Source: a virus (Duplodnaviria; Heunggongvirae; Uroviricota; Caudoviricetes). Taken from it: DNA of 11,637 nucleotides. The stretch lies in the IMG/VR virus record IMGVR_UViG_2534681675_000022. The stretch is one strand, 5' to 3'. Below are positions 6,238 through 11,637 of the stretch, piece by piece; within the stretch, counting starts at the first letter, position 1; each line of letters starts with the position of its first letter. A program made the position numbers and the translations under genes. The notes under the pieces are model-generated. The model was given only the letters and a program-made list of their open reading frames with translations, was not told the origin of the DNA and did not search any database.

Positions 6238-6250
6238 TTTTTTGTAAAAG

Positions 6251-6477
6251 CCCTCTACCCCATCTACCTGAATGAAATAAACGCATATTATTCAACATGA
6301 TAAGTGGGTAGAGGGCCAGGTAGAAGGCTAATAAAAGCTCTCTACCTCTTCTACCTGATTTTATCAGTTTCAGATGGCAGGGTAGACGGCAGGTAGAGGA
6401 GCACCAAAAGCTATCTACCCGCTGAAAGCCGCGCCATTACTGACATGATGAGCATTCGGGTAGATGGGTAGAGGGGG
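6251..6477. repeat. Iteron array (candidate replication origin)
   Basis: About 11 copies of GGTAGA[GATC]GG in both orientations, arranged in pairs (CCCTCTACCCCATCTACC; GGGTAGAGGGCCAGGTAGAAGG; CTCTCTACCTCTTCTACC; GGGTAGACGGCAGGTAGAGG; CTATCTACCC; GGGTAGATGGGTAGAGGG) with AT-rich spacers, immediately 3' of the replication gene. Confidence 0.7.
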
Positions 6478-7242: not shown

Positions 7243-7250
7243 ACGCACAG

Positions 7251-7273
7251 GCCGGAGAAAATCCGGCTTTTTG
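7251..7273 (+). terminator. Intrinsic terminator after ssb
   Basis: GCCGGA gaaaa TCCGGC followed by TTTTT. Nearly identical to the terminator at 9517-9542. Confidence 0.7.
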
Positions 7274-9097: not shown

Positions 9098-9514
9098 ATG
9101 ATGGCAACGAATGAAAGCATCATGACGCTACCGCTGGCGAGTAAATTTAAAGCCGAAGCGCGGGCAATGGCTGACAGAGGGTTATCAACCTACGAGGGCA
9201 TATATCAACTTAACAAACTGGAAGAGCAGGACAAGCCGCGCGCTGATTCGATTATGGCGCTTGATGAATCTGGCGACTATCAGCCGCTGTTACGTGCAAT
9301 GGCAAACGTGCCTTGTATCGATGTTGGTACGGCTAAAAGCATCCTTAGCATGACCATAGAGCAGGAACGTCCGAAGGTTGCGCCGGAGCTTACCGCAGCC
9401 TTTGAAAACTTTATGGACACGCACAGCCCGCAAGCCGTATCAGCTGGCATGGCATACGATGGCAGAAACCCGGGCGATGACGGCGACATCGATCGCATAC
9501 TGAAAACCATCTGA
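9098..9514 (+). CDS. Hypothetical protein (138 aa) downstream of the capsid genes
   Basis: ATG 9098 or 9101 after AGGGGG; last gene before the terminator and cos. Sits where lambda has FI, but I could not support sequence similarity to FI. Confidence 0.55.
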   Translation: MMATNESIMTLPLASKFKAEARAMADRGLSTYEGIYQLNKLEEQDKPRADSIMALDESGDYQPLLRAMANVPCIDVGTAKSILSMTIEQERPKVAPELTAAFENFMDTHSPQAVSAGMAYDGRNPGDDGDIDRILKTI

Positions 9515-9516
9515 GA

Positions 9517-9542
9517 CAGGCCGGAGAAATCCGGCTTTTTTT
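9517..9542 (+). terminator. Intrinsic terminator after the capsid operon, abutting cos
   Basis: GCCGGA gaaa TCCGGC followed by eight T residues; near-duplicate of the 7251-7273 terminator. Confidence 0.75.
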
Positions 9543-9610
9543 ACGGGTCCTTTCCGGCATATGGACCCGTTACGGGGCGGCGACCTCGCGCGTTTTCGCT
9601 ATTTATGAGC
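9543..9610 (+). other. Lambda-type cos site A: cosQ-side flank, cosN (12-nt cohesive end GGGCGGCGACCT at 9575-9586) and first ~24 bp of the cosB side
   Basis: ACGGGTCCTTTCCGG...GTTACG GGGCGGCGACCT CGCGCGTTTTCGCTATTTATGA is almost base-for-base the lambda right-end/left-end junction as I recall it; similarity ends after TTTATGA. Confidence 0.75.
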
Positions 9611-9719
9611 CTTTTCAGGGGGGTGGTGGTGGTTTTGTTGTTTGCTCTATCTTTATGAATGAAAAGGGAAAGATGCAAACAATACACCAACCTGAAGCAG
9701 TAATTAAGTTGGTGTATTA

Positions 9720-10262
9720 ATGAAATCGCACCTGATGAACAAAAAAAACATGGCGAAAAGCTGCCGTGTAAGTGCGACAGCGTTCGACAAGTGGGGAGTG
9801 ACTCCCGTTGAACGTAAAGGCCGTGAGGCGTTTTATGATGTTGCCAGCGTGATAGACAATAGGGTTAACAATGCAATTAGCCAGCTTACAAACGACAAAG
9901 GCGATATTGATGATGATGAACTCTTACGAGTCAGGATCAGATTACTGACAGCACAGGCGGAGGCGCAGGAACTTAAAAACGAGCGCGATCGCGGTGACGT
10001 GATTGATACTGAGTTTTGCCTGTACGCGCTTTCAAAGCTGGCGAGTCAGATTTCATCAATCATGGACAGCCTCCCGCTTACTATGCAAAGGAGCTTCCCA
10101 CAGATTACCCCCGCCATGCTGGACAGGCTTAAAAGGGAAGTGGTTAAAGCCTGTAATGCCAGTGCCAGAGTTGCCGACAACCTCCCACAGATACTGGCTG
10201 ATTACTTGAAAGAAACAACCGGAAACGTACCGGAAAAGTTGCTACAGAAGAAAGGCAAGTAA
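9720..10262 (+). CDS. Terminase small subunit, lambda Nu1 family
   Basis: 180-aa ORF. C-terminal two-thirds align with lambda Nu1: LLTAQAEAQELKNERD vs LTRAQADAQELKNARD; FCLYALSKLASQISSIMDSLPLTMQRSFPQ vs FCTFVLSRIAGEIASILDGLPLSVQRRFPE; LKREVVKACN vs LKRDIIKAMN. N-terminal wHTH region is recognisable (NKK..., YDVASVI vs YDSAAVI) but divergent in the recognition-helix region. Start could be 9720, 9735 or 9750. Confidence 0.85.
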   Translation: MKSHLMNKKNMAKSCRVSATAFDKWGVTPVERKGREAFYDVASVIDNRVNNAISQLTNDKGDIDDDELLRVRIRLLTAQAEAQELKNERDRGDVIDTEFCLYALSKLASQISSIMDSLPLTMQRSFPQITPAMLDRLKREVVKACNASARVADNLPQILADYLKETTGNVPEKLLQKKGK

Positions 10263-10288
10263 CAGAAGCGCAATTATTGAACAAAAAT

Positions 10289-10490
10289 GAGAAAGGATCT
10301 GATAATGGCATTTTCTGGCTAAAATGCCTCGTGTCAGATCCTTTCTTTTTTTAATATTTTCATTGTTAAACAGTCTGTTACAGAGAAGAAGAACGGATCT
10401 GACTTTTGCCGGAAAATTTTCATAAACAGATAAAAACCGCGAGGTCGCCGCCCCGTAACGGGCCATAATTCCAGGAAGGACCCGACGACA
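10289..10490 (-). other. Lambda-type cos site B in inverted orientation: cosQ-side flank, cosN (10442-10453) and a full cosB-like region with three R-like repeats
   Basis: Minus strand reads CGGGTCCTTCCTGGAATTATGGCCCGTTACG GGGCGGCGACCT CGCGGTTTTTATCTGTTTATGAAAATTTTCCGG ...CCGTTCTTCTTC..., tracking lambda cos for more than 100 bp. Core GGATCTGA/TCAGATCC at 10294-10301, 10333-10340 and 10395-10402 sits where lambda has CGTTTCC/GGAAACG, in the same orientation pattern. The inner 13-bp inverted repeat (10289-10301 / 10333-10345) plus T-run also looks like a terminator for terS. Confidence 0.75.
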
Positions 10491-10517
10491 CCAGGCTATC
10501 AGAACGATGGGGGCACA

Positions 10518-10799
10518 ATGACAGAAGCCGAACTACTGCGATTAATCCGCCGCGTTACCGGAATCAGCCAGCAGCATGACGAACAGGGCACGCAACCGGA
10601 CAGCGTGACCGCTGAAAATTATGCGCGTGTTGTTGCTGAGGTGATGCGCCGTGATGGTATTGAGCTTAACGGCGTGGATATGCGCAACATACGAACCAGA
10701 GTCCTTGAGTTGCTGGCATACCGTCGCCGCGTGGAGATGTATCGGGAGAAGGAGAAAATCACGTACCACTGGAAGAAGCCGGAACGGTTGCGGCGGTAA
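10518..10799 (+). CDS. Hypothetical protein (93 aa) just outside cos B
   Basis: ATG 10518 after GATGGGGG; Arg-rich helical-looking protein; no recognisable family. Confidence 0.4.
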   Translation: MTEAELLRLIRRVTGISQQHDEQGTQPDSVTAENYARVVAEVMRRDGIELNGVDMRNIRTRVLELLAYRRRVEMYREKEKITYHWKKPERLRR

Positions 10800-10882
10800 C
10801 TCACTGAGATTAAAGCAAAGCTCAAAATTGCGCTGGCTGAATGATCATTATGATTACTTATGTTTACGCAGATGATTAAGGC
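10789..10882. repeat. Direct repeat, copy 1 (~90 bp), overlapping the 3' end of the 93-aa ORF
   Basis: GGCGGTAACT...TTAAAGCAAAGC[TG]CAAAATTGCGCTGGCTGAAT[GA]ATCATTATGATTAC...GCAGATGATTAAGG; copy 1 has an extra TTATGTT relative to copy 2. Confidence 0.6.
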
Positions 10883-10922: not shown

Positions 10923-11005
10923 CTGGCGGTAACTGGTTGAACTTAAAGCAAAGCGCAAAATTGCGCTGGCTGAATAATCATTATGATTACGCAGATGATT
11001 AAGGA
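10923..11005. repeat. Direct repeat, copy 2 (~83 bp)
   Basis: Same unit as 10789-10882. Contains the AGCGCAA aa TTGCGCT hairpin and the ATCATTATGAT palindrome. Confidence 0.6.
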
Positions 11006-11322: not shown

Positions 11323-11484
11323 ACAGCAACGCCCCCTTAAAATTACCCGCCTTTATATTTCTTGTGCCTATTTGTTCCACGTTGTTTCATACAGTGCGCC
11401 GAACGGTGTAGTCACTGGTGTAGTTATTTTGAGTTTTTTTGCACTTCGGGCTTAATTGAAAATATAATTAAATCAGTATGTTAT

Positions 11485-11637
11485 TCAAAATAAGTTATAT
11501 ATAACAGCAATAAATAATGCGAGAATAAACGGCACGAGGATCTCGGCGGCAAAACGGATACCGCAGAGAATAATGACCAGCATTCCCAACATAATGACGA
11601 TTTTTAGACCATTGAGCGTGATGATCGGCTTTGCCAT
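11485..11637 (-). CDS. Short ORF (50 aa): N-terminal fragment resembling the AI-2 exporter TqsA/YdgG (AI-2E family) membrane protein, apparently truncated at the island junction
   Basis: Minus-strand translation from the ATG at 11637: [46 protein letters not shown], then YNLF and stop. This matches the TqsA N-terminus as I recall it for ~46 residues; the downstream sequence becomes AT-rich and unrelated. Confidence 0.5.

Follow-up and report, generated by a model that had tools for sequence, protein, structure and literature searches.

Two inverted lambda-type cos sites around the terS gene of an Escherichia coli phage-inducible chromosomal island, a TerS-type variant of the EcCICFT073 arrangement

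Why does a phage satellite carry two lambda-type cos sites that face each other across its small-terminase gene? The question is raised by positions 9543–10490 of an 11,637-nucleotide stretch of DNA, IMG/VR virus record IMGVR_UViG_2534681675_000022 (the window), in which an original prediction had pointed out a cos site on either side of terS. The window is part of a phage-inducible chromosomal island (PICI) of E. coli, laid out as in the family of EcCICFT073, the island of strain CFT073. Contrary to the original prediction, two cos sites in one packaging unit are not without precedent: EcCICFT073 has the same inverted pair, published as cos1 and cos2 by Fillol-Salom et al. in 2018 (PMC6092414) and 2019 (PMC6739421) and tested there. 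The basic finding is thus already known from the sister island, and the window is its TerS-type variant. From comparison of the window with its relatives, we consider it probable that the site upstream of terS (site A, in the cos1 position) and terS together form a private packaging system of a lambda-dependent island of the EcCICFT073 family, and that the downstream site (site B, in the cos2 position) is an optional entry site of helper type.

The pair was confirmed by exact matches within inverted arms. The 12-mer GGGCGGCGACCT, identical to the lambda cohesive-end sequence (cosN), lies at 9575–9586 on the plus strand (site A) and at 10442–10453 on the minus strand (site B), with 855 bp between the two copies. 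Chance alone would give about 0.04 matches, and the observed count (3 or more) did not arise in any of 200 shuffles. A 22-mer around cosN, GTTACGGGGCGGCGACCTCGCG, is identical at both sites, and the sites occupy inverted-repeat arms of 76 nt (9544–9619 and 10409–10484) that are 79% complementary and have 789 nt between them. Read in its own sense, each site runs from a cosQ-like flank through cosN into an I2-like block and aligns with the lambda ends; flank and block are at 9544–9574 and 9587–9619 on the plus strand for site A and at 10454–10484 and 10409–10441 on the minus strand for site B. The only credible open reading frame (ORF) between the arms is terS (9720–10262, plus strand).

The protein encoded by terS is a small terminase of the Nu1 family, 180 amino acids long (Pfam PF07471, Phage_Nu1, E = 2e-23, residues 33–148); a PDB sequence search with it gave no match. 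Its closest phage counterpart is gp1 of N15 (46% identity); the two proteins have the recognition-helix stretch AFDKWGV.PVE in common and, compared with the lambda protein, carry the same two deletions. The C-terminal half, which is not truncated, comes closest to PhiR5_1 TerS in a full-length alignment with the N15, lambda, 21-type and PhiR5_1 proteins. This suggests a large terminase (TerL) partner different from that of N15 or lambda; in lambda, TerL is bound by the C-terminal part of TerS (PMC9026076). Rpp, the TerS-binding adaptor of 139–154 amino acids, is not what occupies the slot between the two sites. Because the slot holds a Nu1-family TerS, and because the 138-amino-acid ORF upstream of site A has no Pfam or PDB sequence match and is not recognizable as Rpp, the island is a TerS-type relative and not an Rpp-type member of the family.

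Site A has the features expected of a partner for this protein. Its cosQ is identical to that of phage PhiR5_1, and its whole cosQ–cosN–I2 stretch is 95.8% identical to the PhiR5_1 sequence. The I2-like block, which forms the inner part of the inverted-repeat arm, has conserved columns in common with lambda, N15 and EcCICFT073 cos1. Beyond it there is no lambda-type triplet of R3, R2 and R1, as the original prediction had stated, and the layout is that of a single R3, as in N15. The candidate R3, GGTGGTGGTGGTTTTGTTGTTTG (9622–9645, plus strand), spans bp 48–70 from cosN and so stands at the position of the N15 element, which is found at bp 48–60 in what is the known single-R3 case (PMC9026076). 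Sequences at this position are graded, from GGTGGTGGTGGTTTTGTTGTTTG at site A through the intermediate GGTGGTTGTTGTTTAAT in strain SCU-172 (locus L014) to GAGGTTGTTGTTTAA in N15. We propose that 9622–9645 is the binding site of the island TerS. The candidate R3 is kept in all TerS-type relatives, and the cosB of site A adjoins terS in 80 of 80 IMG/VR relatives.

A natural chimera bears on the same point. In strain JNE151685 the N-terminal half of TerS is of phage-21 type and the C-terminal half of island type; the cosB beside the start of its terS is likewise of 21 type (TCATGTCGGTACT), and the AGATCC-type cosB on the other side of the gene is unchanged. Linkage to terS and co-variation with the DNA-binding domain of its product together argue for site A being the partner of the island TerS. 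Between the candidate R3 and the gene lies an inverted repeat, AATACACCAAC/GTTGGTGTATT (9681–9718, plus strand), which ends 2 nt before the terS ATG and is a candidate operator or structure of the 5′ untranslated region; it is only partly conserved in two relatives from complete genomes (L012 and L013).

Site B is built differently. The original prediction of a complete cosB convergent with terS was upheld: R3, R2 and R1 are all present in lambda register, with R2 inverted. R3, CAGATCCGTTCTTCTT (10386–10403, minus strand), covers bp 53–68 from cosN B and differs from lambda R3 at three positions only (bp 54–56). R1 (10284–10302, minus strand) also falls in register with its lambda counterpart and makes an inverted repeat with R2 (10333–10352, plus strand), which is turned relative to both R3 and R1. 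The three copies conform to (G)TCAGATCC(T/G)TTCT.

The R2/R1 repeat, with an inner hairpin, lies just past the terS stop codon; as RNA the stem has a folding energy of −33.7 kcal/mol (z = −5.65), and U7 comes after it on the plus strand. It was found by folding, since its loop is too long for the terminator scan, which passed over it. Its terminator-like form agrees with the proposal that the hairpin doubles as the terS terminator. On the other side, a terminator-like hairpin (AGGCCGGAGAAATCCGGCTT followed by TTTTT; 9518–9541 in the terminator scan, plus strand, within a repeat at 9516–9541) ends the block of capsid, decoration and 138-amino-acid genes directly before site A. Since a terminator precedes site A and the R2/R1 stem with U7 follows terS, the cassette looks transcriptionally insulated on both sides. 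A near-copy of the 9516–9541 hairpin at 7247–7272 ends the SSB block, the common form being ACAGGCCGGAGAAA(A)TCCGGCTTTTT.

The history of site B was read from its relatives. Its cosQ is identical to that of EcCICFT073 cos2, and phage SerU-LTIIb and a prophage of strain 08-00022 have R elements of its type in their cosB. EcCICFT073 cos2 too has a phage cosB: over 179 nt it matches PhiR12 phages at 93% identity, and its identity to the potB prophage of CFT073 is 87%. We typed the spacer between terS and the gene for a 93-amino-acid protein in 69 IMG/VR islands of the TerS type. An AGATCC-type cos2 is present in 13, a CATGTCG-type (21/PhiR5-like) cos2 in 16 and a cos2 with another cosN (GGGCGGGAGCAT) in 10; nine retain a remnant consisting of cosQ and half a cosN, and in the other 21 the spacer is 11 nt long and holds no cos2. 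Complete genomes supply examples of these classes (L012, a remnant, and L013). Every cos2 present among the 69 is inverted relative to cos1. Hence, site B is a complete phage-type cos that is facultative, modular and swapped among islands. Conservation of one site only had been named beforehand as an outcome that would speak against a paired role; the comparison largely gave that outcome, with site A universal and site B facultative.

Could site B then be a non-adaptive scar, its cosB segments deposited repeatedly by recombination with lambdoid phages at cosQ–cosN–I2 and kept by linkage until they are deleted? The original prediction had offered a fossil of helper recombination among its explanations; this fits the origin of site B, a phage-type cosB module swapped among islands. 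That 21 of the 69 islands have lost the site and nine keep only a remnant is in keeping with a scar, as are the plain phage captures seen elsewhere (for example in locus L015, which has a phage cos and 24 codons of a phage terS) and the increased transfer of EcCICFT073 when cos2 is deleted (PMC6092414). Yet no fewer than four versions of cosB or cosN have entered one slot, always inverted, and the last ~25 nt beside the terS stop codon are the same in two of them, which looks like replacement under retention and not like decay. Moreover, the complete block is present in 488 genomes, and cos2 on its own is enough to mobilize a plasmid and to give the island some residual transfer (PMC6092414). 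We judge the scar to be rather unlikely.

A second alternative would make site B an interference device, either a decoy cos that draws off helper TerS–TerL onto the abundant DNA of the island or a place of abortive convergent cutting, with a lower helper yield as the result. The cosB of site B is indeed of phage type and not of island type, and PICIs of the EcCICFT073 family interfere with helper packaging (PMC6739421). That interference is, however, accounted for in EcCICFT073 by Rpp sequestering TerS (PMC6739421), and a decoy that is cut would also break the island's own concatemers, so that we regard this explanation as improbable.

One further locus shows a cos of phage type beside the 93-amino-acid gene. 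In strain FDAARGOS_943 (L015, 2940–3300) a single cos with a variant cosN (GGGCGGGAGCGG) and a potB-type cosB is followed by 24 codons from the start of a phage terS, which are joined to the sequence preceding the 93-amino-acid gene. The locus looks like a direct capture from a phage.

How might two such sites work together? We take the private system of site A and terS, with site B as optional helper-type entry, as the probable reading. Site A would offer a lambda-type cosQ and cosN to the helper large terminase and an N15-like, single-R3 cosB to the island TerS, whose C-terminal half would recruit helper TerL; packaging would proceed from site A rightward through terS. Site B, a captured phage cos of different cosB specificity, would be a second entry for a terminase with the cognate helper TerS and would package leftward, at a cost whenever both sites are cut. 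In lambda, initiation needs cosN and cosB, terminase stays on the cosB side and moves away from cosQ, and termination needs cosQ upstream of cosN (PMC9026076). Because of this last requirement, a motor begun at one of two sites that fire toward each other should ignore the other and not terminate there. Packaging in either direction, one of the possibilities raised originally, would fit the published plasmid assays with EcCICFT073.

The same geometry may explain why the pair is always inverted. A double cut would free a fragment of 867 bp that has the same 5′ overhang at both ends and leave a backbone with two identical overhangs of the complementary type. Such a backbone would be unable to close on itself without the terS fragment, which could rejoin either way round; had the sites been direct repeats, the same two cuts would let the backbone close and delete terS. 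The inverted orientation would then be the only arrangement that survives terminase, invariable because the double-cut backbone needs the terS fragment to close, and flipping would be a by-product, arising because the fragment can rejoin in either orientation. The gain in transfer published for removal of cos2 could likewise follow from double cutting being wasteful. Taken to its conclusion, cos1–terS–cos2 would be a terminase-operated flip cassette, cut twice at convergent cosN sites, with the fragment only religated, in either orientation. We put this forward tentatively, as a possibility that has the odds against it.

Flipped cassettes do occur in nature, and the earlier suggestion of an invertible or recombinogenic cassette gained direct comparative support from them. 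Four TerS-type genomes matched, over its full length, a synthetic query made by joining the flank of site A to the cosB of site B read forward. In strain 2014C-4587 (L024) the segment corresponding to window 9544–10484 is inverted, both flanks are collinear and terS is annotated on the opposite strand; JNE151685 (L025) is a second flipped TerS-type case, at a different chromosomal site. The four genomes represent at least two events. Among islands of the RppA type, strain WP4-S17-ESBL-08 (L026) has an EcCICFT073-like island in which the segment between the cos sites is inverted and 99.4% identical to that of CFT073, including rppA with the same protein accession. The flipped left junction of the RppA type was counted, with clonality left aside and only L014 and L026 inspected, in 31 genomes, four of them of the rearranged L014 form, and the normal junction in 69.

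In 2014C-4587 and JNE151685 the crossovers lie within the identical core of ~25 nt that surrounds cosN. The cosQ types are reassorted elsewhere: they are swapped in a second island of strain OkiPb01694 (L023), and the cos2-type cosQ is found on both sides in WP4-S17-ESBL-08. Besides cutting and rejoining by terminase, homologous recombination over the short identical core could just as well have produced the inversions.

Would the cassette instead be a programmed invertible switch, turning terS on and off or deciding which cosB faces the direction of transcription and packaging? Both orientations occur in nature, in TerS-type and in Rpp-type islands, and flipped and normal RppA-type junctions number about 27 and 69 once the L014 form is excluded. 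In addition, no promoter was found in the cassette; terS may therefore be transcribed by read-through from the operon of the island, in which case orientation would matter. A dedicated invertase of the Hin/Gin/Cin or Fim type is missing, however: no recombinase is encoded in or beside the cassette, and the only one of the island is the integrase at 1–1218. Flipped TerS-type cassettes occur in only 4 of ~490 genomes and in none of 80 IMG/VR loci, and the flipped genomes may be a few clonal events. A switch of this kind is in our view very improbable.

Strain SCU-172 carries a rearranged form of the cassette (L014, 2972–3519). Its cos1 position has a forward-read potB-type cosB, followed by a palindromic junction at a 3′ remnant of rpp; its cos2 position has the N15-like cosB already mentioned (GGTGGTTGTTGTTTAAT) and no terminase gene. 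We tried to derive this arrangement by one inversion and did not succeed.

Several observations weigh against a private site A with a working helper-type site B, and against the flipping mechanism. In the published tests of EcCICFT073, removal of cos2 raised transfer (PMC6092414). Two of the E. coli PICIs that encode TerS were tested in 2018 and gave no transfer after induction of resident prophages (PMC6092414). The terminase of N15 packages lambda DNA (PMC9026076), and the R3 of site B may therefore be open to the island TerS as well. No cognate helper for site B was identified: phages with an AGATCC cosB exist, SerU-LTIIb and the prophage of strain 08-00022 among them, but their cosN is not that of site B, and such phages were detected in only 38 genomes, against 488 with this cos2. 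Thirty of the 69 relatives are without a working cos2, which may give no benefit. The strict consensus WATCAANNNNTTR for integration host factor has no match in 9500–10520, including the interval between R3 and R2 of site B, where there is an A/T-rich spacer of lambda-like length, and a scan for promoters detected no sigma-70 site that could serve terS inside the cassette. Finally, cutting and rejoining exactly at cosN does not by itself account for the reassortment of cosQ in WP4-S17-ESBL-08 and in the second OkiPb01694 island.

Both sites belong to one element. The window is 100% identical to a region of E. coli OkiPb01694, where the element is flanked by both halves of tqsA; the island is ~11.7 kb long, begins with the integrase and ends on the right at about window position 11505, with sites A and B both inside. 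The same block is found at other chromosomal places, at tRNA-Pro/yejM in Nissle, beside phoQ in CFT073 and, as a second copy in OkiPb01694, at tRNA-Ile. The original prediction had allowed that the second site might be part of a neighbouring unrelated element whose boundary falls between the two sites, an explanation that the tqsA boundaries and the recurrence of the block elsewhere make virtually untenable. The block as it stands in the window is present in 488 of the 5426 complete E. coli genomes searched, and terS in 759 of the 5426, O157:H7 and Nissle 1917 among them. Four unit lengths of the island come to ~46.7 kb, near one lambda genome. The second OkiPb01694 island (3,064,801–3,077,022) encodes TerS and 93-amino-acid proteins identical to those of the window; compared with the window copy, the cosQ types of its two sites have changed places. 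Its match of 99.5% to the cosB of site B had made a resident prophage in OkiPb01694 a candidate; this was rejected, as the match is the tRNA-Ile island itself.

The gene order is integrase, helix–turn–helix regulator, Icd-like, DUF4222, primase, SSB, lambda-E-type capsid, lambda-D-type decoration protein, 138-amino-acid ORF, site A, terS, site B and 93-amino-acid ORF. By the RefSeq annotation of the identical record and by synteny with CFT073 and Nissle, this is the layout of the EcCICFT073 family: int, an alpA-type helix–turn–helix gene, primase–rep, ori, capsid-like genes and a packaging module, transcribed rightward within about 10–20 kb. Pfam matches among the island proteins are to SSB, Phage_cap_E and HDPD. 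The 93-amino-acid gene (10518–10799, plus strand), a conserved gene of the right end without a Pfam match, is part of the backbone and lies outside the cassette. It is common to three classes of E. coli island (L016–L021), namely the lambda-cos type, capsid-forming PICIs (cf-PICIs) with HNH, TerS-P27 and TerL, and islands with a protease–capsid fusion; in the second and third of these classes, too, it comes after the packaging genes, and the third has no lambda-type cos.

The backbone contains further repeats. Direct repeats of 75 nt at 2218–2292 and 2903–2977 (80% identical, 685 bp spacing) reflect the tandem duplication of a small minus-strand gene pair, one hypothetical and one for a YlcI/YnfO-family protein. 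Just past the integrase gene, 1267–1306 holds repeats of ACAACGTGA/ACAATGTGC with a 10-nt period, and a 30-nt inverted match stands at 11360–11389 near the right end; they could serve as arm-type sites or bind a regulator. Direct and inverted repeats just 3′ of the primase gene (6245–6271 and 6332–6358; 6259–6274 and 6453–6468) occupy the place of the replication origin in this island family. Near the right end, just 3′ of the 93-amino-acid gene, a block of ~90 nt is duplicated ~130 bp apart (10792–10881 and 10925–11004; 89–96% identical).

Fillol-Salom et al. asked why some PICIs have two cos sites and reported no recognizable phage cosB at either EcCICFT073 site (PMC6092414, PMC6739421). The question becomes testable with a constant site that co-varies with the DNA-binding domain of TerS, an exchangeable copy of a phage cos and an always-inverted pair that has flipped. 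On inversion of PICI cos cassettes, or on further work with cos1 and cos2, the searchable literature gave only the papers of 2018 and 2019, and the comparative results described here, a private as opposed to an exchangeable site, a constant inverted orientation and natural flipping, were not found in it. If the private system is real, an own TerS with a private cosB would be a third route by which satellites redirect cos packaging, alongside Rpp adaptors and simple cos mimicry, and the island would have a built-in use of helpers of more than one packaging specificity. Should the flip cassette also hold, the inverted layout would protect the specificity gene from terminase-mediated deletion, terminases of two specificities could package the same island, moving in opposite directions, and cosQ/cosB combinations and terS orientation would be reshuffled at each helper encounter.

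Of the known systems, EcCICFT073 is the closest. It belongs to the same family, with the same gene order, the same capsid, decoration, 137-amino-acid and 93-amino-acid neighbours and two exact inverted lambda cosN around a packaging-specificity gene: cosN on the plus strand at 37559 of locus L004, rppA (144 amino acids, WP_000565609.1), cosN on the minus strand at 38298 and then the 93-amino-acid gene. Its upstream site has a non-lambda cosB, as here, in which GGTGACACCACCACCAC is the counterpart of the GGT/GTT-rich, N15-like cosB of site A; its downstream site has the same cosQ as site B but a cosB of CCGGACATG type where that of site B is of AGATCC type. The slot holds a 144-amino-acid Rpp without the C-terminal TerL-binding region (PMC9026076) in EcCICFT073 and a full-length Nu1-type TerS of 180 amino acids here. 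In that island either cos site mobilizes a plasmid, transfer is lowered by deletion of cos1 and abolished by deletion of both sites, and the cosB of cos1 is read by the Rpp–TerS complex (PMC6092414, PMC6739421); it is for these sites that transfer assays show cutting by terminase (PMC6092414). From this dependence on RppA and from the cos–rpp layout given in PMC9026076, we take cos1 to lie before rppA. Only this rpp-proximal site is treated by Murialdo and Feiss (2022), who propose for it a single R3 at bp 48–65, as in N15 (PMC9026076).

The chromosome of CFT073 holds three lambda-type cosN in the same orientation, in the potB prophage (1,348,533; L009, 1034–1045), in EcCICFT073 as cos1 (1,387,558; L004, 37559–37570) and in the icd prophage (1,424,744; L003, 34745–34756). 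They are spaced at 39.0 kb and 37.2 kb, each interval being about the size of a lambda headful. By its geometry the arrangement might allow in-situ packaging from cos to cos, with late genes of the prophages, genes of the host and the island being taken up.

Among phages, N15 resembles site A and its gene most: the DNA-binding domain of its TerS is of the same type, and its cosB is short, with one element at the R3 position and no R2 or R1 (PMC4669245, Feiss et al. 2015; PMC9026076). It differs in having a single cos, with a cosN two bases off, and the C-terminal half of the island TerS is PhiR5_1-like, unlike that of N15 or lambda. Lambda cos (cosQ–cosN–I2–R3–I1–R2–R1) is matched by site B, where the whole layout is in register; the R elements are of GTTTCC form in lambda and of AGATCC form at site B, which has no terminase gene after it and borders on the 3′ end of terS, a gene of the other strand. 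Lambda derivatives with a duplicated cos, as reportedly studied by Emmons in 1974 and by the Feiss laboratory, carry it as direct repeats and lose the segment between them through terminase action. They too have two cos on one replicon, but in direct orientation, whereas in the island the pair is inverted and the segment is retained or flipped. A parallel is seen in the Staphylococcus aureus pathogenicity islands (SaPIs), in which a satellite TerS redirects the helper large terminase, as we propose here, and of which SaPIbov4 is reported to have two putative cos sites (cited in PMC6092414). The SaPIs that bear TerS use pac/headful packaging, and others, such as SaPIbov5 and SaPIbov4, use cos (cited in PMC6092414); the present island has a TerS of its own together with cos packaging.

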